Below, piece by piece: positions 24,690 through 52,310 of a stretch of DNA of 64,000 nucleotides. This DNA comes from an uncultured Bacteroidota bacterium. GTDB taxonomy: Bacteria > Bacteroidota > Ignavibacteria > Palsa-1295. The translations under genes were made by a program, and so were the position numbers. A model generated the notes under the pieces. It saw only the letters and a program-made list of their open reading frames with translations, was not told the origin of the DNA and made no database searches. The stretch lies in contig OY969726.1 of the NCBI GenBank assembly GCA_963702215.1, positions 3,288,609 to 3,352,608 on the forward strand. The letters run 5' to 3'. Numbering within the stretch: position 1 is the stretch's first letter; every line of letters begins with the position of its first letter.

Positions 24690-24771
24690 GCGGGAGTGGC
24701 GAAATTGGCAGACGCACTACTTTGAGGTGGTAGCGCCGCGAGGCGTGGGGGTTCAAGTCCCCCCTCCCGCA
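24690..24771 (+). tRNA. tRNA-Leu (anticodon GAG), type II with a variable-arm hairpin
   Basis: Acceptor stem GCGGGAG/CTCCCGC. D-arm GCG-AAATTGGCAGA-CGC. Anticodon stem CTACT/GGTAG with loop TTGAGGT. Variable arm CGCC-GCGA-GGCG. T-arm GGGGG-TTCAAGT-CCCCC. Discriminator A. No encoded CCA. Confidence 0.8.
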
Positions 24772-26455: not shown

Positions 26456-29072
26456 TTGGCCTATCCTTTCTCCGAAATCGAACTGAAGTGGCAGGAATAC
26501 TGGAAGCGCCACGAGACATATCGGGTAGAACGCGACCCATCGAAGCCGAAGTATTTCGTCATGGATATGTTCCCATATCCTTCCGGGGAAGGCTTGCACA
26601 TCGGGCATCCGCTCAGCTATACGGCGACGGATGTCGTTATGCGCTTGAAGCGGATGCAGGGCTTCGCCGTGATGCACGCGACTGGCTGGGATGCATTCGG
26701 CCTTCCCGCCGAGCAATACGCTGTAAAGTACAAGCTGCACCCGCGCATCACGACGGAACGAAATATCGCCACCTATCGCCGACAGCTCGACTCACTCGGA
26801 TATGGCTACGATTGGTCCCGCGAAATCAACACGACCGATCCCAATTATTTCAAGTGGACACAATGGATTTTCCTGAATTTTTTTAATTCTTATTACAATA
26901 CTGAAAAAGATAGTGCTCGCCCGATAGAGGAGCTTATCAGCCTTATCGAAATAATCGGGACGCGAATTCTGCCATGCGCGTTGCCGCGGGACATCAAACA
27001 CTACAGTGCGGAAGAATGGCACTCCGCCACCAATAAACAGCGCGCCGATTTTCTCGCGAATTGCCGGCTTGCCTACGTTGCCGATGCGCCGGTTAACTGG
27101 TGCCCCGAGTTGGGAACCGTACTTGCGAACGAAGAAATTGCGGAACAAGAAGAAAAAGGCTTTACGGTCGTAAGACGCAACATGCGCCAATGGGTGCTGC
27201 GTATCACGGCGTATGCCGAGCGCTTGCTGCGCGATCTCAATACGGTGAATTGGCCGGAAAGCACCATCCATAGCCAGCGCAACTGGATCGGCCGAAGCGA
27301 GGGGGCTGAAATCGACTTCGAAGATCGCGGGCACAAAAGAAAAATTCCGCGTTTATACTACACGTCCCGATACACTCTTCGGCGCCACATACATGGTTCT
27401 TGCACCGGAGCATCCGCTGGTTGGCAAAATTACCACGCCTTCGCAGTCAGCATCGGTCGAAAAATACCTGGATGAGGTGCGCCGCAAAAGCGATTTGGAA
27501 CGAACCGACCTCGCACGCGAGAAAACCGGCGTATTCACCGGCGCCTACGCGATCAATCCCTCGAATGGAAAGCACATTCAGATATGGATCGCGGACTATG
27601 TGCTGATGTCTTACGGCACCGGCGCGATTATGTCCGTTCCGGGCCACGACGAACGCGATTTCGAATTTGCGGAAGCCTTTGCACTTCCCATCGTGCGCGT
27701 GGTGCAAGCGCCGGGTGTGGATGCAAACGAGCCGCTCCTCGTGCCATTCACGGACGATGGCATTGCGGTTCATTCCGGATTTCTCTCGGAGCTGCCCACG
27801 GCAGAAGCGAAAGAGAAAATGATCGAGTGGCTCGAAGCCAATGGCAAAGGGAACCGAGCGGTGAAATATAAGCTTCGGGATTGGCTGTTTTCGCGCCAGC
27901 GGTATTGGGGGGAACCGTTCCCAATTATTTATGTGAACGAGGGAGATGGCGAATATCCAAAAGCCTTGCCGGAAACCATGCTTCCGGTGATTTTACCAGA
28001 AGTGGAAAGTTACCAACCCTCCGGCACCGGCGAATCCCCGCTGGCCACCATCTCTGCATGGGTCAATACGACCGACCCGGAAACCGGCCATCCCGCCCGC
28101 CGCGAAACGAACACGATGCCGCAATGGGCCGGCTCCTCGTGGTATTTCCTCCGCTATCTCGATCCCCGCAACGATCGCGAACTGGTTTCTCCGGAAGCGG
28201 AACGATACTGGATGCCGGTCGATCTCTACATCGGAGGCGCGGAACATGCCGTGACGCATTGGCTCTACTCGCGCTTCTGGCATAAGTTCCTTTATGATTA
28301 TGGCATCGTTCACACACCGGAACCATTTAAACGCATATTCCACCAGGGAATGCTGCTGGGCGAAAACGGCAGCAAAATGTCGAAATCGCTCGGGAATGTC
28401 ATCAATCCCGATGAGCTGGTCTCGCAATACGGGGCGGATACCGTGCGTTCCTATGTGCTTTTTCTCGGGCCGCTCGAAGGAACGAAACCGTGGGATTCCA
28501 AGGGCATTATGGGCGTTCACCGGTTCCTGAATAAAATATGGAAAATTATTGTACGAGAGGATAACACGACCGATCTGAATACTCTATCCGATAAGGTTCC
28601 TTCGCAATCGTTCGAAAGATTACTCCATCAAACGATAAAAAAAGTTGGCGAGGATATTGAAGCATTGCGTTTCAATACCGCGATTTCCGCTTCGATGATT
28701 CTTCTCAATGCGATCGAAGATGAGCAGGGCGGGGTGCCACGCCTGGCATTCGAAGTGCTGCTGAAACTCATCGCGCCATTCGCGCCTCATATTGCCGAAG
28801 AGCTGTGGCAACGAATCGGGCACGATGGAACCATCTTTGATTCCCAGTGGCCGTTGTACGACGAAGCGAAAACCATTGAACATGTCGTCACGCTTATCCT
28901 TCAGGTTAATGGAAAGCTGCGCGACAAGCTCGAAGTGCCGCGCGGGCTTTCCGCCGGCGACCTCGAACAATTCGCGCGCGAAAGCCCGAATGTGATGAAG
29001 CATATTGATGGCAAGCAGATTCGAAAAATCATCGTCGTGCCGGATAAATTAGTTAACGTAGTCGCCACATGA
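26456..29072 (+). CDS. leuS: leucine--tRNA ligase, split by a frameshift in a poly-A run
   Basis: ORF 26456..27475 gives the N-terminus with HIGH ([13 protein letters not shown]). In a +1 frame it continues as [24 protein letters not shown] into ORF 27393..29072 (KMSKS region: [10 protein letters not shown]). The frame switches at about 27334..27350 inside CACAAAAGAAAAATT. Confidence 0.9.
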
Positions 29073-42208: not shown

Positions 42209-44108
42209 CGAGATTGCGATCCACTACGACAACGCCGCTTTGGATCACGACGTGATACACGCCTGCCGGGAGCAGATGAATATCGAGCGAAATGGAATTC
42301 GCGCCGCTCGGCTGGATAGATTCATCGTGGCTCAGGACTTCATTCCCTTTTAGATCGAAGAGGCGAATACGCGCGGTGCGCGCTGCGCTCGAAGAGATGT
42401 TCATGGTGATGGCGTTCCCGCTCGCGGGGTCCGGATCAATCGCGCCGACACTGAATTCATCCGCATCGATGGCCCGCACCGACTCTTGTCCCGCAGCCGG
42501 TGCCGTTAGCGGGCCGGCAACATAGGCGAAAATATCGCCATCGTGGTAGCTGGGCTGGCGGTTTTCCGTCCAACTCGCGACGAAGTAGCTGCCGTAAGCA
42601 TCACTTGTAGCATAATCGCCAACGAAATCCCCGCCCTCCGCCGTGACGGTCAGAGGATTGAATAAATCAGAGCCCATTGTATTCAGTGTGGCGGGCGAAT
42701 TGTAGTTACACCAAACAGCGCGTGACTTCACGTTCAGTACCGTATCCTCCTCCGAGCTGCTCATCGAAATATACGCGGAATGCGTAACCGGGTCGATCGC
42801 CACCCACGGCATGTAGTGATCGTTGTTGATGCTTGACCTTGTGCCGATTTGTGCCGGAGCGCTCCAATCCTTGCCCAAATCGGTGGAACTAATCTCGTAC
42901 AACGCCGCGTCGGCGTTGAATTCGTCGTAGGTTCCATAGACGGCACGGATGGTGTTGCCAGAATCCACATCGAAGCAAGGATACGGCGAGGCGCGGAATC
43001 CATTCGGCCCTTTCAATCCGTTACGGCCCTGGTCGATCGGCGGAAAATCGGTGAAGGCATGCATCGGATAATCCTGAAACGTGGCGCCACCATCGGTAGA
43101 AATGCTCATTCCTTCGCTCTTGTCCGTAACCGTGGAATCGGTAATCGTTCCATAGTAGTGCATCGATGCGATGAACGCCGTTCCATGCTGGCCGACTCGC
43201 AGCAGTGCAAAATCGCCATAATAGGTGGAAAAAGGCATGGGCGAGGACCACGTCACGCCATGATCGTCGCTGTGGGCAACATAATGGATGGCAGAGTCCG
43301 CCAGAGTATTTCCTGTGTTATCATACTCGGTCCATGCGATATAGAGCCGGCCGTGATAGGGACTCGAGGGATCGTTGTCCACCGCGATGGTTTCCTTGTC
43401 TTCGAAGGCATTATTATTTTGATTCCCAACGACAGGGTTCCCAAGCGTCCAGTGTATGCCATCGGTGCTGTGCGCAACCATCAGATCGGAATATCCACCC
43501 AGTTCCGGATACATCAGGAACGAATAGTAGAACATGCCGGCATCATTGCAGACGATCATCGGGTCGCCCCATTCCTCCGCACCGGGATCGTTGGTTGCCA
43601 GCGGCAAGCGGTACGTTTTCCAGGTAAAGCCGCCATCCGACGTGAGGTAGGCGGGCATGCCCAGCGTATTCATGCCTGTTGCTTGACCATTCGATTTCAT
43701 TTCGAGATCGTTGGCGCCAGCGACGATCAGATTCGGGTTCCTGCGGTTAATCGCGATGCTCGGTTCGTCCTCATCCTCGATGGAGCGGCTAATATCAGTG
43801 TGAATATTGGTGTCGATCGATTGAACGGTAGCATCGTTCTTACCATGATTGGCATTGCCGGAACCGTAGCCCAACCCGAGCGCGAGCGCCGCCTTGCAAT
43901 TGATCCATCGCGAAAATCCATCGCAGGCATGGTAAAGCGTCAGTCCATGTGGGTAAGCCGCAAGCTCCTTTTGCACCTGCGCCTGGAACGCGGAATCCGC
44001 GCCACTTGGCGCGATGCCAGCCGCCGTGCGGCTTTGCGCGCGAGTTCCGGGCGAATAAAGCGTGACTGCCGCAAGAAAAACGGCAACCGAGAAGCGAAGA
44101 CTTTTCAT
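42195..44108 (-). CDS. secreted BNR/Asp-box repeat (sialidase/sortilin-like) protein with a T9SS C-terminal sorting domain
   Basis: Signal peptide MKSLRFSVAVFLAAVTLYSPGTRAQ. Asp-box motifs STDGIHWT, SDDHGVTWS, STDGGATF, STDLGKDWS. C-terminal T9SS domain ...RIRLFDLKGNEVLSHD...AGVYHVVIQSGVVVVDRNLVILR. Confidence 0.6.
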   Translation of the reverse strand: MKSLRFSVAVFLAAVTLYSPGTRAQSRTAAGIAPSGADSAFQAQVQKELAAYPHGLTLYHACDGFSRWINCKAALALGLGYGSGNANHGKNDATVQSIDTNIHTDISRSIEDEDEPSIAINRRNPNLIVAGANDLEMKSNGQATGMNTLGMPAYLTSDGGFTWKTYRLPLATNDPGAEEWGDPMIVCNDAGMFYYSFLMYPELGGYSDLMVAHSTDGIHWTLGNPVVGNQNNNAFEDKETIAVDNDPSSPYHGRLYIAWTEYDNTGNTLADSAIHYVAHSDDHGVTWSSPMPFSTYYGDFALLRVGQHGTAFIASMHYYGTITDSTVTDKSEGMSISTDGGATFQDYPMHAFTDFPPIDQGRNGLKGPNGFRASPYPCFDVDSGNTIRAVYGTYDEFNADAALYEISSTDLGKDWSAPAQIGTRSSINNDHYMPWVAIDPVTHSAYISMSSSEEDTVLNVKSRAVWCNYNSPATLNTMGSDLFNPLTVTAEGGDFVGDYATSDAYGSYFVASWTENRQPSYHDGDIFAYVAGPLTAPAAGQESVRAIDADEFSVGAIDPDPASGNAITMNISSSAARTARIRLFDLKGNEVLSHDESIQPSGANSISLDIHLLPAGVYHVVIQSGVVVVDRNLVILR

Positions 44109-44394
44109 GTTCGTTTGAAAAAAGTGAAACCCTCTAAATAGAAGACCCGCGAAACGGCAAAAGGTAACAGCCTTTTCGAAGAATTATTCCCTGAAAATGA
44201 AGCAGCGTTCATGCCGCCCAGTGCCGGAGGCACGCAGTAGCCCCGAAGGGGGGAAGTACCCGCAGCCCAGAGCCTGCCCTCGACCCGATCGCGGGTGGAA
44301 CGAAGTGGAACCCTGGGTACGCAAAGCCATCATAACCCGTTAGCCCTGCAAGGGCGATGTACGCCGATTCAGTCCCGTTAGGGACGGCATATTC

Positions 44395-44567
44395 GTAGCC
44401 CAGTGCGTAAGCGCTGGGATTGGGATTGAAAAAAGATTCCATAGCTCCGTAGGAGCGATATATTCCCCGCGTGATAATATGCCGCTCCTACGGAGCTTGG
44501 GATTCTTTGGCTTTTCGCAACCCAGCGCTTACGCACTGGGCTACGAATATTGCACTCCTACGGAGCT
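44395..44567. repeat. large nested inverted repeat (~65-nt arms) immediately after the last small ORF of the island
   Basis: Arm 1 at 44395..44457 consists of block A (GTAGCCCAGTGCGTAAGCGCTGGG), a spacer, then block B (AGCTCCGTAGGAGCG). Arm 2 at 44483..44544 is its reverse complement, with blocks A and B perfect and the middle divergent. A third B-like copy lies at 44553..44567. Confidence 0.6.
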
Positions 44568-44693
44568 GGGATTCGTTCCCCCCACAATCCTGATTTCCTC
44601 CGCGCTTAAACCGTAAAGCTGATAGACGAGTGTATCGATCTCCGCACGCGCGCCCGCGATCTGTCGGGTGAGGAGGGTGCGATCAGACATGCA
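44541..44693 (-). other. 50-aa ORF that consists only of the conserved C-terminal tail of a Type II/IIG N6-adenine methyltransferase (remnant)
   Basis: MSDRTLLTRQIAGARAEIDTLVYQLYGLSAEEIRIVGGTNPSSVGVQYS. It is about 80% identical at the nucleotide level to the 3' end of the R-M gene at 45751..45860. Its ATG overlaps the stop of the 203-aa ORF (ATGTCTGA). Confidence 0.4.
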
Positions 44694-45294
44694 TGAGTTC
44701 TCGGAACTTTGCCTCGACCTCGTGCCTGGTCGCTGCAATCTGACTCTCCAATAAAAGCAGCGCCTGTTGCGAAGTCTTAACAATGTCCAGCTGGCTATTC
44801 GCTCCAACACCAACGCCATACAAAGCATTTTGGAGCGGCGCAAAGGCGGCATCAATTTCGGAACGAAGTTTGTCGATTTGCTCGCAGAGCGAATCATTCA
44901 GCCAAATTTTGTTCGATTCATATGAAGCAACGAAATCTTTCAGGGCGTGCAAGAAATCATCCGCCTTAGGCCATTTGCTTTCGTGAGCCTCACCGGGAAC
45001 ACGTATAAGGTCCCTTCCTTTGCCAAACACCTGCGACAACTTAGAATATAGTTCCTTAAATACAACACCCTGTTCCTCTCGTAATCGAGCCAACCGGATC
45101 TCGTCCCACTTGTTGTTTCGGGCTATTTCACCTTTCAATTTTTCCAGTTCTCGATTTGAAGCACTGGCTAATTCGTTTTTGTATTTTTCCAAACCTTTCT
45201 CGGCTACCACTTCAGCCCGCTTCTTCACATAAGCGGGTATTCCGATCACTATCACAGCGAGAAGCGCTATGTCGATAATGTTTGATATGCTCAT
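44683..45294 (-). CDS. hypothetical membrane-anchored coiled-coil protein (cassette gene in the R-M island)
   Basis: 203 aa. N-terminal TM helix IIDIALLAVIVIGIPAYV, then Lys/Glu-rich coiled-coil. Its ATG overlaps the stop of an upstream R-M tail fragment (ATGA). Confidence 0.45.
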   Translation of the reverse strand: MSISNIIDIALLAVIVIGIPAYVKKRAEVVAEKGLEKYKNELASASNRELEKLKGEIARNNKWDEIRLARLREEQGVVFKELYSKLSQVFGKGRDLIRVPGEAHESKWPKADDFLHALKDFVASYESNKIWLNDSLCEQIDKLRSEIDAAFAPLQNALYGVGVGANSQLDIVKTSQQALLLLESQIAATRHEVEAKFRELMHV

Positions 45295-45400
45295 GCTTTT
45301 CCCTCCACTATCCTAATTTCCTCCTCGCTCAAACCGTAAAGCTGGTAGACGAGATTATCGATCTCCGCGTCCACGCCCGCGATGTGGCGGGTGAGGATAA
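45291..45400 (-). repeat. second copy (~92% identical) of the R-M gene 3' tail, an in-frame remnant encoding ...LTRHIAGVDAEIDNLVYQLYGLSEEEIRIVEGKA*
   Basis: Aligns to 45751..45860, the true 3' end of the R-M gene. It is preceded on the - strand by a terminator hairpin. Confidence 0.6.
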
Positions 45401-45429
45401 TAAAAAGGGCATACAATGATGTATGCCCT
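45396..45429 (-). terminator. rho-independent terminator for the - strand
   Basis: Read on the - strand: AGGGCATACA-TCAT-TGTATGCCCT followed by TTTTTATTAT. This is a 10-bp stem plus a T-run, downstream of the small SD-led ORF. Confidence 0.6.
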
Positions 45430-45437
45430 AAGTGGTA

Positions 45438-45599
45438 TCAAGTTTTCTTGACCCATGTCGCTCCGTGCGCGTTAGCATCGCCATTCACATTACACGGAGG
45501 GAACGTTTCCCCTGACTTAATGTAGATGGTATGAGTAGTGTGTTTCGAACAGTAATAAGTACCGCTAGATTCACATTTACCTCCCGTAGATCCGGTCAT
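45438..45599 (-). CDS. small (53 aa) Cys-containing protein with a canonical Shine-Dalgarno sequence
   Basis: AAAGGAGGTGATTAA-ATG; MTGSTGGKCESSGTYYCSKHTTHTIYIKSGETFPPCNVNGDANAHGATWVKKT, stop TGA. Not in the ORF track because it is under 60 aa. It sits in an AT-rich stretch immediately downstream of the R-M gene. Confidence 0.5.
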   Translation of the reverse strand: MTGSTGGKCESSGTYYCSKHTTHTIYIKSGETFPPCNVNGDANAHGATWVKKT

Positions 45600-45750
45600 T
45601 TAATCACCTCCTTTCATTAGCAATTATTATCACTCATGTTCAGTGAGTGCTAATATATTAACTATGTTTGGAGCCAAGTGAATCCTCGAAAACACGGTTG
45701 TTTATCCACATAAATGATAACGACTTCCCGTTTTTCCACATTCTAAAAAA

Positions 45751-48700
45751 TCAACCCTCCATTATCCTAATTTCCTCCTCGCTCAAACCGTAAAGCTGGT
45801 AAACGAGTTTATCGATCTCCGCATCCACGCCCGCGATCTGGCGAGTGAGGAGGGTGCGATTCTGGCCATCGCTCATCTTTTTAAGTTGGTTATGCAGATC
45901 GATTTCCCTTTCAACGTATTTTTCCATCAGCTTTATCTGCTTCGTTGAAACATCTTTTGGTACGGGAATCTTTCGCAAATCGCCGACCGATAATCGCGGA
46001 AAGGCATTCGCTACCATCTTGTTCGAAATGTACGGGTAAATTCTTGAGATTAATGTGGAATCTAAAATTCCCACAAGATATTTCATTGAGTAGTCGGATT
46101 CGGGAAGTGGATTGATGTTGAGGATGGTCTTGTAATTACAATATGTATCCTCCGTGTACGTTGCTTGCAGTGCGTGGGGTTGCTTTCCCGATATTTCGCG
46201 AATCAGAATTCTTGGCCCTTGTAGCCAGTCCATCGTTCGGTAATCGTGAAGCCAGGGGCCGTACTTAATCCACTGGCCTCTCACCCTCTCAAGCTCATAG
46301 CGAGAAACGTCACTACCCGCAAGCTCTGGAAGATATTCGGAAGACAGCTTTTTATCGGCATGAAAAACTCTGTTCTCGATTTGTTGTTTTGTGTGCTTAG
46401 AACTATTGTATGCCTGGCATCCGAGCGAAGCACGCGCGACCGTTCCCAGCGGAATCGATTGCTTTAGGATTTGATCCGCGAGTTTTCCCATAGGATCCAT
46501 CCTTCTCGTCTCAATGATGTGTCCTTCGTTTTTAAACCAATCAATCTGCTTTGCGTGGTATTCTTGCCCGCTCGTAGGATCGGAATCGGCGTCGATAACA
46601 CGCACTTCGTGCGAATCGCTGGCTACTATTTTCGAAAGAAAGACCAGCGCCGTGTTTACGGTTGCGGACTCGAAAACGAATCCTTTGAATGTTACGAGTT
46701 CGTCTATCTGAGTCTTTTCAAGAATATACTTCCTTAAGGACTTGGTAAAGACCTGAGTAAGCCAAGGATTTGGAACGATAAATCCAAGCTTTCCTTCTGG
46801 CTTGAGCAGTTCTATTCCTCGTTCGATAAAAAGCTGAAATAGGTCTGCCTTGTATTCTGCTGTTCCGAAGTGTAATAAATATTTGGCGGTTCTAGCATCG
46901 AACAGGTCTTTACCTATAACCACATACGGCGGGTTCCCAATGACGACATCGAAGCCGCCGTTTCGCATAATATCGGGGAAGGCTTGCTTCCAGTCCATCG
47001 GATTTATTTTGGCGGTGTCCGGGGAATAACCACCCCCTGCCCCCTCCTTGAAAAGGAGGGGGTTGTTGTAGTAATCGGTTCCGATGAGGGAGTTGCCGCA
47101 GAGGATGTTCCGGTCGAGATCGGGGAGCAGTCGCTCGGCGGTGTCGTAGGCAATGCGCTGGGTTCCTCCGTCGCTCCCGCCGCTCTCTCCGCCTTCGAGG
47201 ACTTTGAGCATCAAATTCAGCTTCGCCACTTCCACCGCGTTCCTGTCAATATCGACGCCGTGAATGTGGTCGAGCAAGATGCGCTTCCGCTCGCGCGGGG
47301 AAAGGCGATAATCTTTTTTCGTGGGGTCGGAAGTGGGAATGCGGTCGAGAACTTTCTTTTTTGTCCAGGATTCCGGCTCATTGGCGAGATAGAATTTGAG
47401 ATACCAATCGAGTAAATACTGATACGCTCCGAGCAGGAAGGAACCGGAGCCGCAGGCGGGATCTAAAATTGTGGGTGTGGGACATGCTTTAGCTTGTCCC
47501 TTCTTATCTTTGGACCAAGCTAAAGCATGGTCCACACCCAGCATTTTTCCGACGGTATTCTTCACAATATAATCGACAATATAGCTCGGCGTGTAATAGA
47601 CGCCGCCGGCTTTTTTTACTTCGGGCTTTTCTTCGACGCGGGCGTTGCCGCCTTTCGTCAGCGTGATGACTTGTCCCAGGAACTGCTCATACACGTGGCC
47701 CAGAATATCCGAGGGAACGATATCGAATGCATACGGACTTTCGGGATAATAAAGATGCCTGATGATGTCGGTGAGCACTTTATCGTCAATGGCAAGTCGC
47801 GGGGTGAGCGCGTCGAATCCTTCGCGGCTCTTCTCTTTCCTGAAATGGAAGAGACCGGAATTGAAGCGGTCGTCGGCGGCGCGGAAACGGTTGAGGAGAT
47901 TCTGGTAAACAGAACCAACCACCCCCCGTCCCCCGCCTTGAAAAGGCGGGGGAGTTTTTGTTTTTTGGGTTCCGTCTATGAGATAGCGCAGCCTGGCGTC
48001 GAGGGCAAGGTTCCCATATTGCTCGATCTTTCGGTCCCTCGCAGATGCGGAGCATGATAATGCGGTCGAGCGTAATTTGCACGGCGCTGTTTAGCTCGGA
48101 TTCGGACAGCCCTTTGTTGCGGAGCGCGATATTTTCGGCAAGCTTCTTTCGCCAGGCGATCATATCGGCGAGGAACTGTTTATCGAAGGGCGTGGTGCCG
48201 CGCTTGCCTTTTGCCTGCGCGGCGTATTTATCGAAGCGTCCTTTCCAGACGGCTTCGCGGGAAAACGTTTCCACGAGCCAGTCCCATTTCTCTTCGTACT
48301 GTTCGAAGTTGAAAAATTCGATGCGGTCTTTATAGGGCGCGTCGGTGGGTTTGGGAACGGAAGTAGTTTGATAAACGGCGAATTCCTCGAAATCGGAAAG
48401 CAGTGAGATGGAAAGTCCGGCGCTCCAGGCGTAGCGTTTCAATTGATAGGCCGGCGCGACGTCCGTTGCGAGGTGAACTTTGGGCGCTTTGCATTCGAGA
48501 AAGAATTTCTTCTCGCTGCCCACGCGGAAGGTATAATCGGGAGCCTTCATTGCGCCTTCAATGCGAAGCGAATCCTCGTGGATGACCTCTTTGTAGGCTT
48601 CGGCGAGTCCGGCACGATTCGTCATATCCCATCCGAGTTCCCACCAGAAGGGATTGATAAATTCCTCCCGAAGCTGCGCTTCTTTGTATTGGGCGCTCTT

Positions 48701-48766
48701 ATAGGATTCGCGGTGATCGCGAAACCGCTCGACGAGATCCTGAATTGTGCGAGGAAACATGTACAA
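45751..48766 (-). CDS. Type IIG restriction-modification enzyme (MmeI/Eco57I-like): N-terminal endonuclease, gamma-class N6-adenine methyltransferase and C-terminal target-recognition region, split by a frameshift
   Basis: ORF 47786..48766 gives the N-terminal nuclease domain (FINPFWWELGWD...LDRIIMLRICE). In a -1 frame it continues as DRKIEQYGNLALDARLRYLIDG...VVGSVYQNLLNRFRAADDRFNSGLFHF into ORF 45751..47922 (motif I DPACGSGSFLLGAYQ, motif IV DVVIGNPPYV, conserved tail LVYQLYGLSEEEIRIMEG). There is an extra G in the GGG run near 48036. Confidence 0.8.
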
Positions 48767-49104
48767 AAATACGAAAACATTGAACCTGGATCACGCGAAT
48801 GATCGCTCATCCGCTGCGGATTGGATGGATTTTCGGGATTACTATCGGAAAAAACGAAGAGTTCCAGTCCAAGGGGAACTATTAGATACGTATCTTATGT
48901 TTGATATTATGGAAGGGTTGTATTCGTTAAATGATTCGTATCTTTCATGAAGAAAGGATTGTGATTCTTTGAGAAATAAATATTGGTTCATGAACACGCA
49001 TCCAACACACACTATAAAACATTTTGGGCTTCTTTCTAGCAGAATGAAAAAATCAAACGTGCTCATTATGGATTTTTCCGATTTTTCTTCACTGCCTTCC
49101 CAGT

Positions 49105-50499
49105 TTATGCCCCGTATTTCTCCGGCCACAGCGCCTTCAATCGTTGCAGAATCGTCTTTTCGCGGCCTTGCTCGGTGGGGTGGTAGAAGACTTTATCCTG
49201 GAGCGATTCTGGTAGATACGTTTCGCCTTTGGCGAAATGTCCGGGCTCGGAGTGGGCATAGCGGTAACCTTCGTGGTAACCTAATTCCTTCATGAGCTTT
49301 GTTGGCGCATTGCGGAGATGAAGTGGCACCGGCTGGTCGGGATTTTGGCGGGCTTCTTCCATTGCCGCGCCGATGGCAACGGTCGTCGCATTGGATTTGG
49401 CCGCGGATGCGAGATATGCAACCACCTGCCCGAAAATAAGCTGCGCCTCGGGGTAACCGACGGCACGGACGGCATCCCAGCAGGCCGTGGCGAGCAGGAG
49501 CGCATTGGGATCGGCATTGCCGATGTCCTCGCTGGCGAAGATAATCATGCGGCGGGCGATGAATTCCAAATCCTCGCCGGATTCGATCATGCGGGCGCAC
49601 CAATAGAGCGCGGCGTTGGGATCCGATCCGCGCATGGATTTGATGAAGGCACTGATGATATTATAATGCTCCTCGCCGGCTTTATCGTAACGGGAAGCTT
49701 TTCGCCCGAAGGCGGCTTCGATGGTTTCAACGGTAAGGCCGAGCGAGGACGCTCGACCTACGCGTAGGTCGGTCGTCCTCGCCCGACTCTCCGGTTCTGC
49801 AAGCTGCACGGCGAGTTCCAGGGCGTTCAGCATCTTGCGAGCATCGCCGCCGGAAAGGGCCATGAGGGCGCGGCGAACATCTTCGGAGAGCGTAATGTCG
49901 AGCGATTTTAGTTCTTCGTCTTCTTTTAAGGCGCGGTCGAGCAGCGTTTCCAAATCTTCGCGTGAGAGACGTTCGAGCACGAAAACGCGGGCGCGGGAAA
50001 GCAGCGGCGAGATAACTTCGAAGGAGGGATTTTCCGTCGTCGCGCCGATAAGAGTTACCACACCGTGCTCGACCGCGCCCAAAAGCGCATCTTGCTGCGA
50101 TTTCGAGAAGCGGTGGACTTCGTCAATAAAAAGCACGCTCCGGTCTTCGGCGGTCGTGTTCGCTTCGCGCGCTTGTTCGATAGCCTCGCGCAAATCCTTG
50201 ACTCCGGCGCTGATGGCCGAAAGCGAAAAAAATGGCGCGCGGACCGAGCGAGCGAGAATATTCGCAATCGTCGTCTTGCCGGAACCCGGCGGACCCCAAA
50301 AGATCATCGAGTGCAGCTTGCCGCGCTCGATCATCATGCGGAGCGGCTTTCCTGGACCGACGAGCGCGCGTTGCCCCACAACTTCGTCTAAGGTTCGCGG
50401 GCGCATTCGTTCCGCGAGGGGAAGGAAGGAATGTGGATGGGTAAGCGCTAATGGGTCGGTTTCCGAGCATTCGAGCTTTGGTTGCTTTTGTCGTGGCAT
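49105..50499 (-). CDS. rarA: replication-associated recombination protein A (AAA+ ATPase MgsA/RarA)
   Basis: Walker A GPPGSGKTT, Walker B VLFIDEVHRF, and a MgsA C-terminal domain. Confidence 0.85.
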   Translation of the reverse strand: MPRQKQPKLECSETDPLALTHPHSFLPLAERMRPRTLDEVVGQRALVGPGKPLRMMIERGKLHSMIFWGPPGSGKTTIANILARSVRAPFFSLSAISAGVKDLREAIEQAREANTTAEDRSVLFIDEVHRFSKSQQDALLGAVEHGVVTLIGATTENPSFEVISPLLSRARVFVLERLSREDLETLLDRALKEDEELKSLDITLSEDVRRALMALSGGDARKMLNALELAVQLAEPESRARTTDLRVGRASSLGLTVETIEAAFGRKASRYDKAGEEHYNIISAFIKSMRGSDPNAALYWCARMIESGEDLEFIARRMIIFASEDIGNADPNALLLATACWDAVRAVGYPEAQLIFGQVVAYLASAAKSNATTVAIGAAMEEARQNPDQPVPLHLRNAPTKLMKELGYHEGYRYAHSEPGHFAKGETYLPESLQDKVFYHPTEQGREKTILQRLKALWPEKYGA

Positions 50500-50517
50500 G
50501 ATGTGCCTCCGTATGAC

Positions 50518-52094: not shown

Positions 52095-52168
52095 CGGAGC
52101 GGACGGGACTCGAACCCGCGACCTCCTACGTGACAGGCAGGCGTTCTAACCAGCTGAACTACCGCTCC
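52095..52168 (-). tRNA. tRNA-Asp (anticodon GTC)
   Basis: The reverse complement reads GGAGCGGTAGTTCAGCTGGTTAGAACGCCTGCCTGTCACGTAGGAGGTCGCGGGTTCGAGTCCCGTCCGCTCCG. This is near-identical to bacterial tRNA-Asp, with anticodon loop CTGTCAC. Confidence 0.85.
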
Positions 52169-52237
52169 AGTACCAGATTGTGTCGATGGAAGCTCCTGCT
52201 TCCATCGGGGAAACAGTGGCGTCCCCTACACGCACTG

Positions 52238-52310
<73 letters not shown>

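Follow-up and report, generated by a model that had tools for sequence, protein, structure and literature searches.

Why would a single gene carry two copies of one short palindrome and keep its reading frame through both? The question arises in a stretch of 64,000 nucleotides (nt) from an uncultured Bacteroidota bacterium (contig OY969726.1; the whole stretch is called the window here), which holds two GC-rich hairpin elements of about 36 nt, both inside one minus-strand gene for a type IIG, Eco57I/MmeI-like restriction–modification (R-M) enzyme. In-frame palindromes have been known since the Rickettsia palindromic elements (RPEs), which are roughly 100–150 bp long, and the repetitive extragenic palindromes (REPs) found in repair genes, and the way in which such elements spread had remained open. 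RPEs are dispersed palindromic repeats that lie in frame inside functional-looking genes and also in intergenic DNA (Ogata et al. 2000, as summarised in PMC3733652), and REPs inside genes, often repair genes, are likewise documented (PMC3733652). Here we put at roughly 85% the probability that the two copies are solo members of a dispersed palindromic element, which would have spread through the action in trans of DUF559 nucleases.

Two hairpin elements inside an R-M gene

Each element consists of an (A)ACCACCCCC tail, a spacer of 2–3 nt and a C5/G5 hairpin closed by a GAA loop. On the plus strand, copy 1 reads ACCACCCCCTGCCCCCTCCTTGAAAAGGAGGGGG (47029–47062, exactly where an earlier note made from the sequence alone had placed it) and copy 2 reads ACCACCCCCCGTCCCCCGCCTTGAAAAGGCGGGGG (47918–47952, one base away from the approximate 47919–47954 of that note). 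The copies are 890 nt apart in the same orientation and share about 85% identity, as the note had estimated. Its 8-bp stem around a TTGAAAA loop gives way to stems of 10 bp in copy 1 and 11 bp in copy 2, each with a GAA triloop; the compensatory change that it had pointed out is real and is the single stem difference between the copies, T–A in one and G–C in the other. Folding energies of the two hairpins range from −22 to −27 kcal/mol (−25.8 to −26.9 kcal/mol for copy 1).

The 9-mer ACCACCCCC occurs twice in the 64 kb, both times adjoining one of the hairpins, against an expectation of 0.17, and 0 of 100 shuffles reached that count. The 11-mer loop core alone is not significant (at least two matches in 26 of 100 shuffles); for the full degenerate 35-nt pattern the chance expectation in the window is 0. 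A covariance model, R1, built from 44 solo copies in other genomes, scores copy 1 at 61.3 bits (E = 1e-9) and copy 2 at 58.7 bits (E = 3e-9) and, with filters off, finds no other match in the window. Both copies are singletons, not doublets. Rfam has no family at either copy (E-value mode over 44000–50500 and gathering mode over the whole window); apart from tRNAs, these searches gave noise hits.

Comparison with homologues shows that the segments are lineage-specific insertions. In alignments of 26 and 43 R-M homologues (44–56% identical), PPPFQGGGRGVV, the peptide encoded by copy 2, is an insertion in the window protein and is absent from all other aligned sequences. The homologue nearest in this region, P0071 (P labels denote R-M protein homologues and L labels genome or metagenome loci), reads ...KKEKIT|G-VY..., encoded by GGA AAA AAA GAA AAG ATC ACT | GGG GTC, where the window has ...CAA AAA ACA AAA ACT (36 nt) GGT TCT; the insert is exactly the consensus element of 36 nt, beside an A-run that was already there. 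The linker that holds copy 1 varies in length among homologues, and subtracting 36 nt brings it to the typical length. In the same linker P0071 carries CTCCCTCGCCCTTTTCAAAAGGGAGAGGGTTGGGGTGAGGG and P0024 carries TCCCCCTCTTGGAGGGGGATAATGGGGGAGG, both related hairpin-plus-tail modules, and P0024 has more modules at two other sites, one of them before methyltransferase motif I. Related modules at identical linkers in different lineages indicate that permissive loops have been struck independently, and the position of the element is not conserved in the alignment of the R-M clade. Among the matches listed in the genome scan described below, copy 1 matches L099, an Ignavibacteriae metagenome-assembled genome (MAG), at 100% identity over 44 nt, and copy 2 matches L058 at 97% over 39 nt; each copy is nearer to copies in other genomes than to its partner, which argues against local duplication. 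A BLAST comparison of the window with the fetched loci matched only the element and the P0071 gene, and BLAST at the level of ORFs (open reading frames) yielded no orthologues that would serve for taxonomy. The earlier note had preferred RPE-like in-frame palindromes to coding drift, and this preference is supported both by the homologues, which do not share the residues, and by the further copies reported below.

The C-terminal part of the R-M gene (Table 1), which hosts both copies, encodes a helical connector, an N6-adenine methyltransferase (ILDPACGSG, NPPY) and a TaqI_C-like specificity domain (Pfam: Eco57I, 4.6e-40; N6_Mtase, 3e-21; TaqI_C, 8.7e-14; MmeI_Mtase, 2.4e-9). The N-terminal part gives a weak HSDR_N match (8.7e-4) and aligns over its entire length with the N-terminal parts of full-length homologues. 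The extra base that separates the two, at 48037, lies about 80 nt upstream of copy 2 in the direction of the gene, and its removal yields a 1002-residue protein colinear with homologues of 960–1100 amino acids that are 44–56% identical. The reconstructed enzyme has the type IIG architecture (N-terminal PD-(D/E)XK nuclease, gamma-class N6A methyltransferase, C-terminal specificity domain), the intactness of the gene being uncertain owing to 48037. The essential leucyl-tRNA synthetase gene of the window is also frameshifted, which favours an assembly indel at 48037, and we regard such an indel as at least as likely as a real pseudogene. The frame upstream of 48037 traverses copy 2 in another open phase, reading NSPAFSRRGTGGGW.

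On the minus strand, copy 1 encodes N-PLLFKEGAGGG-Y (reconstructed residues 567–577) and copy 2 encodes T-PPPFQGGGRGVV-G (residues 270–281), each adding about 12 residues. The two peptides and the open frame are as the earlier note had them, with the qualification that the codon phase relative to the element differs between the copies and that the gene is split at 48037. Its placement of both segments in linkers agrees with the AlphaFold2 prediction for the C-terminal 761 residues (mean predicted local distance difference test score, pLDDT, 74.3), in which both peptides fall in low-confidence coil: that of copy 2 (model residues 29–40) between two helices, with pLDDT below 50 over residues 23–39, and that of copy 1 (326–336) with pLDDT below 50 over 331–335. 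Alignments to PDB chains span the methyltransferase core only, and the regions of both copies lie outside it.

The same C-terminal part contains a third palindrome, an 83-nt hairpin that is the longest inverted repeat in the window (−45.4 kcal/mol, z = −8.4). It encodes GVDHALAWSKDKKGQAKACPTPT directly before methyltransferase motif I (model residues 167–189; mostly coil with a short helix at 170–173; mean pLDDT 50–78), which amounts to a 15-residue insertion relative to CamA (7lni). Homologues P0008, P0019, P0024, P0035 and P0071 hold other inserts at the site before motif I, and no further copy of the 83-nt hairpin occurs in the window or the fetched loci. The R-M gene of P0071 has a GTAGGTCGGGCA...TGCCCGAC hairpin before motif I that resembles a palindrome in the RarA gene of the window.

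Elsewhere in the window, two matches to the Acido-Lenti-1 RNA motif, inverted relative to each other, flank a 77-nt hairpin downstream of the R-M locus, and together they resemble a composite palindromic repeat. The window has no Rfam matches above the gathering threshold other than three tRNA genes.

Table 1. Positions of the elements, the parts of their host gene and other features of the window
Feature	Position	Strand	Sequence, basis or remark
Element copy 1	47024..47064	+ (consensus orientation: C-tail, hairpin)	GAATAACCACCCCC-TG-CCCCCTCCTT-GAA-AAGGAGGGGG-TT
Element copy 2	47914..47954	+	ACCAACCACCCCCC-GT-(T)CCCCCGCCTT-GAA-AAGGCGGGGG(A)-G
R-M gene, C-terminal 761 codons	45751..48036	-	translation, Pfam, full-length homologues
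R-M gene, N-terminal 241 codons	48038..48760	-	HSDR_N-type nuclease domain; different frame from C-terminal part
Extra base GAG-G-GAC	48037	-	splits R-M gene between ...RICE and DRKIEQ...
Third hairpin, 83 nt	47465..47547		near-perfect; in frame in R-M gene; unrelated to the 36-nt element
Palindrome in RarA/MgsA gene, 68 nt	49729-49796		in frame; central CCTACG|CGTAGG; GTAG-tagged, REP-like
Leucyl-tRNA synthetase, overlap of two frames	27249-27472 (about 27310-27330)		GAEIDF... in one frame
Acido-Lenti-1 match	44371-44418	-	near-threshold, 34.7 bits (gathering threshold 37)
Second Acido-Lenti-1 match	44521-44567	+	27.7 bits
Hairpin, 77 nt	44432-44508		intergenic
tRNA genes, three	52095-52310 and 24690-24771		

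A dispersed family of hairpin-plus-tail modules

The two copies belong to a family found in many other genomes. A scan of one genome per GTDB species with the pattern CCCCNNCCTTGAAAAGGNNGGGG, which covers the hairpin and omits the tail, returned at least 126 matches in at least 117 loci; the counts that follow refer to the matches and loci listed. The earlier note had called for a genome-wide search for further copies; these are found in quantity in other genomes, and genome-wide here refers to relatives of the source. A ACCNCCCC tail, not part of the search pattern, stands within 5 nt 5′ of the hairpin in 65 of 126 matches (52%), and the looser CCNCCC tail adds 18, giving 83 (66%). Information content in the family alignment is high between −13 and +24 and drops to about zero outside this range, which delimits a self-standing unit of roughly 37–40 nt. 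The stem covaries: both free pairs are Watson–Crick in 104 of the 126 matches, against 33.5 expected, in five combinations (CT/AG, TC/GA, CG/CG, TT/AA and CC/GG). The T–A and G–C subfamilies, which differ as copies 1 and 2 do, comprise 44 and 25 matches. T makes up 38–46% of positions +26 to +30, many intergenic members being followed by T-runs, and inverted pairs 30–60 nt apart occur in L012, L025, L044, L074 and L113.

At least 55 of the 117 loci come from MAGs of Candidatus Kapaibacterium (35 loci) and of Ignavibacteria type (20 loci), and the others include Bacteroidota, Zixibacteria, candidate phyla radiation (CPR) phyla, Gastranaerophilales, Nitrospirae and several proteobacteria. The window belongs to this lineage: its RarA shares 83% identity with a Candidatus Kapabacteria protein, and one of the neighbouring genes encodes a type IX secretion system (T9SS) sorting domain. 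Several copies occur per MAG, at a density of roughly 0.02–0.04 per kb in related MAGs. Five matches were on viral contigs, none of them tailed (a single phage locus accounts for four, and the fifth is a terminator), so that carriage by phages is unsupported. Full-text literature searches on the nucleotide core and three peptides returned only unrelated primer matches, and searches on REP doublets (REPINs) and REP-associated tyrosine transposases (RAYTs), DUF559 and RPEs returned the general phenomenon and neither this family nor a link between DUF559 and hairpins; the hairpin-plus-tail family is apparently undescribed.

Further regularities accompany the family. Read on the G-rich strand, the tail GGGGGTGG repeats the G arm GGAGGGGG as a G/T copy in mirror image. 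All 8 copies that have the tail variant ACCGCCCC, from three MAGs, have the stem variant CCCCCGCC, a link that could reflect an interaction such as doublet pairing, a triplex or a G-quadruplex, or could simply be shared ancestry or lineage structure. A palindromic repeat of about 200 nt, TTGAGCCTACTCCGAAAAGT...ACTTTTCGGAGTGGACTCAA, is conserved in Bacteroidota/Bacteroidales MAGs, at L032, L040 (two copies 535 nt apart), L048, L062, L064, L077, L081, L102 and L118. It has two inverted modules (ACCCACCCCC plus a CCCCTCCC hairpin, then a hairpin plus GGGGGTGGGT) and resembles a composite miniature inverted-repeat transposable element (MITE).

The reading frame tolerates these elements well beyond the R-M gene. 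Of 94 evaluable copies, 26 (about 28%) lie within an open frame that extends at least 60 codons to either side of the copy, compared with 59% for random positions in the same loci under the same test; copies are thus depleted from coding DNA, yet far from excluded. The open reading frames (ORFs) that host in-frame copies are mutually unrelated. Eighteen of 25 in-frame copies lie in the G-rich-sense orientation, with the peptides PPPFQGGGxGVV, NPLLFKEGAGGGY and SPSFSRRGQGVV; the C-rich sense gives TPSLKRRG and PLLEKEG in two frames and meets a TGA in the loop in the sixth, which leaves the element stop-free in five of six frames.

Orthologues vary in whether and how often they carry the module at a given loop. 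Kapabacteria RarA orthologues (77–90% identical) hold PPPFQGGGRGVV in one loop as a single unit, a doublet or tandem partial repeats. In the RarA/MgsA gene of the window, a different palindrome (Table 1) occupies the loop where relatives carry PPPFQGGGRGVV and adds about 11 residues (..DLRVGRASSLG..) relative to Escherichia coli RarA. Two class-V aminotransferase-like genes of Kapaibacterium (L020 2231–3415 and L054 6256–7476) have one and two modules, respectively, at one loop. The extra module of L054 is a 42-nt tandem duplication comprising a 14-nt flank, ATTATCAAAAANAA, and the module, the older copy of which is decaying; this pair shows tandem duplication, not clean insertion. A preference for A/T-runs is seen at copy 2, L020 and L054, from which insertion directly 3′ of AAAAR-like runs on the G-rich strand would be predicted. 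A crude count of peptide signatures found 4 of 120 R-M and 4 of 120 RarA homologues, with no preference for R-M genes, so that we do not attribute the clustering of two copies in one gene to R-M targeting. The clustering would instead come from several long permissive linkers in a large enzyme, possibly under relaxed selection.

DUF559 genes and their possible role in the spread of the element

We show that the hairpin modules are associated with genes of the DUF559 family. When 2598 ORFs from the 117 listed loci were clustered, DUF559 (PF04480, E = 1e-30 to 6e-35), a Vsr-like PD-(D/E)XK family, was the sole small recurrent neighbour. A separate set of 80 metagenome loci (L121–L200), fetched by DUF559 protein similarity alone, gave the same association with two detectors. 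The density of poly-C-armed perfect hairpins is 3.05 per kb up to 150 nt from a DUF559 gene, 0.69 per kb at 150–300 nt, 0.11–0.15 per kb beyond 300 nt and 0 per kb inside the gene; the controls gave 0.28 per kb (far, non-ORF), 0.26 per kb (beside other small ORFs) and 0.12 per kb (far, ORF). Matches to R1, the solo-copy model, fall from 1.33 per kb within 150 nt to 0.556 per kb at 150–300 nt and 0.019 per kb beyond 300 nt. Module enrichment within 150 nt is 11- to 70-fold, and in 38 of the 80 loci one or more poly-C-armed hairpins lie no farther than 300 nt from the gene.

The common layout around these genes is a C-tail plus hairpin and a hairpin plus G-tail, then the gene, then the same doublet again. 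Doublets flank DUF559 in L012, L014, L163, L188 and L194; at L012 1180–1730 and L014 3180–4000 the gene lies between two direct copies of the doublet, and in L012 the TGA of the hairpin loop serves as the stop codon of the gene. One MAG has the same variant of tail and stem beside DUF559 as in its solo copies. By analogy with known repeat–transposase pairs, DUF559 may mobilise or process the modules.

The mechanism that we favour would run as follows. A consensus unit of about 36–40 nt, (T)ATAACCACCCCC, 2–3 nt, CCCCC[T/G]CCTT-GAA-AAGG[A/C]GGGGG, is abundant in Kapabacteria/Ignavibacteria, with related modules in many phyla, and lands in intergenic and coding DNA alike. Inside genes, the survivors would be only in-frame, stop-free copies in permissive surface loops. 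The element is well suited to such a filter: 36 nt is a multiple of three, and the G-rich sense, in which both window copies lie, is open in all three frames (PPPFQGGGxGVV, PLLFKEGAGGG or SPSFSRRGxGVV), with the opposite orientation meeting the loop TGA in one frame. The R-M copies would simply be transcribed and translated to give Pro/Gly loops of 12 residues, of which one falls in the connector ahead of the methyltransferase domain and the other in the linker preceding the NPPY motif. Spread would take place at the DNA level, would depend on the hairpin and would be driven in trans by the small DUF559 endonuclease, as REPs and REPINs are paired with RAYTs. We entertain only tentatively, at somewhat less than even odds, the broader idea suggested by this analogy that modules and the DUF559 genes they bracket form a widespread and hitherto unrecognised selfish system, in which a nuclease of restriction-endonuclease fold would recognise and process the C5/G5 hairpin or the doublet cruciform and so drive the copying of solo modules to new genomic sites, some of them in frame within proteins.

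Several observations weigh against spread of a dispersed element by DUF559 in trans. Its spread is deduced from comparing sequences, and the association with DUF559 could equally arise from DUF559 cassettes homing into pre-existing hairpins. PD-(D/E)XK nucleases are not known to transpose on their own, and tblastn found no DUF559 gene within the 64-kb window. No target-site duplication is evident at copy 2 when it is compared with P0071. REP-like families do not usually show such near-identity between phyla, and, the scan being pattern-limited, its taxon counts are lower bounds whose order may be arbitrary. Finally, the window has only two copies and both are in one gene; the background density makes two copies in 64 kb expected, and two in one 3-kb gene not.

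Other explanations have to be set against this evidence. One is that the R-M gene is a dead pseudogene, frameshifted at 48037, that passively gathered hairpin repeats, in which case frame and loop placement would be meaningless. We consider this unlikely. A 1-nt frameshift between the nuclease and methyltransferase parts, three different hairpin insertions in one 3-kb gene and the often transient nature of R-M genes all point that way; yet the 1002-codon frame is otherwise intact, aligns end to end with homologues and conserves all catalytic motifs, and all three inserts keep the frame. The frameshift in leucyl-tRNA synthetase means that the assembly, a single 3.58-Mb contig, probably contains indel errors, and relatives carry elements in frame in housekeeping genes, including RarA and the aminotransferase-like gene. 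Less probable again is retention for host use, as antisense terminators, elements of mRNA stability or translation pausing, or flexible protein linkers. REPs are known to have roles at the RNA level (PMC3733652), copy 2 read on the plus strand has the textbook form of a hairpin with a T-run, terminator-like and antisense to the R-M gene, and T-runs follow many intergenic members, with the T-richness at +26 to +30 noted above. The A/T-run beside copy 2, however, is also present in P0071, which lacks the element, and so belongs to the target sequence; the T-tract of copy 1 is weak, unrelated genes carry copies in every frame and in either orientation, and the position is not conserved across the R-M clade. 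Host use is in any case compatible with a selfish origin and occasional exaptation, and so is no true alternative to insertion.

The remaining explanations would do without a mobile family. That the pair arose locally, by intragenic duplication or gene conversion, fits two copies 890 nt apart in one gene and one orientation, but we consider it very improbable: the copies share about 85% identity with each other and 97–100% with copies in other genomes, of which there are at least 126; they come from different stem subfamilies (T–A and G–C) that are both common elsewhere; and their codon phases differ. We give even less weight to ordinary coding, by which Pro-rich then Gly-rich linkers would be self-complementary because CCN and GGN codons pair. 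Such linkers are common, the complementarity is real and dinucleotide shuffles fold fairly well (z only −1.5 to −2.9). Codon pairing of this kind is nevertheless at odds with nucleotide identity across reading frames, unrelated genes and intergenic DNA, with the conserved unpaired tail and loop, with the compensatory stem changes and with the absence of the segment from homologues.

If the broader idea of a selfish system of modules and DUF559 genes is right, DUF559 would gain a function and RPE-like in-frame elements a mechanism of mobilisation. The case offers a very small and sharply defined element, of 36 nt with the R1 covariance model, and, in the uncharacterised DUF559 family, a statistically strong and testable candidate partner. 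The recurrent peptides PPPFQGGGRGVV, PLLFKEGAGGG and SPSFSRRGQGVV can confuse homology searches, gene calling and MAG annotation, and the elements point to sites at which enzymes such as type IIG R-M proteins and RarA tolerate insertions.

Comparison with known systems

An intrinsic terminator was considered and rejected as an identity for the copies, because copy 2 fits only in antisense and its T-run is pre-existing target sequence, the tail of copy 1 is weak and both copies are coding. Compared with MITEs (50–500 bp, derived from an insertion sequence, with terminal inverted repeats and target-site duplication), the solo unit is below the size range and copy 2 shows no duplication against P0071; module doublets, at about 110 nt, do have termini of the type TTTAATAACC...GGTTATTAAA. 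The mobile GC clusters of yeast mitochondria and other coding palindromes (for example PMC6649704) are likewise short GC-rich palindromes tolerated in frame, but they inhabit AT-rich organellar genomes, belong to other sequence families and have no associated nuclease gene. In IS200/IS605 insertion sequences, as here, sub-terminal hairpins flank a small gene, a single-stranded motif lies at the foot of the hairpin, no target-site duplication is obvious and insertion occurs beside a short signature (here an A/T-run). The recurrent neighbours of our element, by contrast, include no TnpA (Y1) or TnpB, and the hairpin sequences are unrelated.

REPs and REPINs (PMC3733652, PMC3116915) share with the element an imperfect palindrome of 20–40 nt, an unpaired motif at one end, occurrence as singletons and inverted doublets, a mostly extragenic distribution with a minority in ORFs, and a small nuclease-type gene flanked by repeats. 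The mark of REPs is a conserved GTAG or CGTC tetranucleotide at one end (PMC3733652), whereas the conserved end here is (A)ACCACCCCC without such a tag; the one CGTC, in copy 2, is a chance product of the GT spacer there and is absent from the family consensus. The flanked gene encodes a DUF559 PD-(D/E)XK protein, not the HUH/Y1 transposase of REP–RAYT systems: the 2598 clustered ORFs contain no recurrent transposase-like family, as judged from a clustering that included no search aimed at Y1_Tnp. REP families are also usually lineage-specific, unlike the near-identical modules seen across phyla here.

In behaviour the element resembles RPEs as well as REPs. Like RPEs, it is a dispersed repeat: both add peptides in frame at permissive surface positions and also have intergenic copies. 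RPEs are restricted to Rickettsia, whereas the source here is a Kapabacteria-lineage genome, and the element is set apart by size, by taxon and presumably by sequence, as a hairpin-plus-tail unit of 36–40 nt that occurs in many phyla and has a candidate partner in DUF559.

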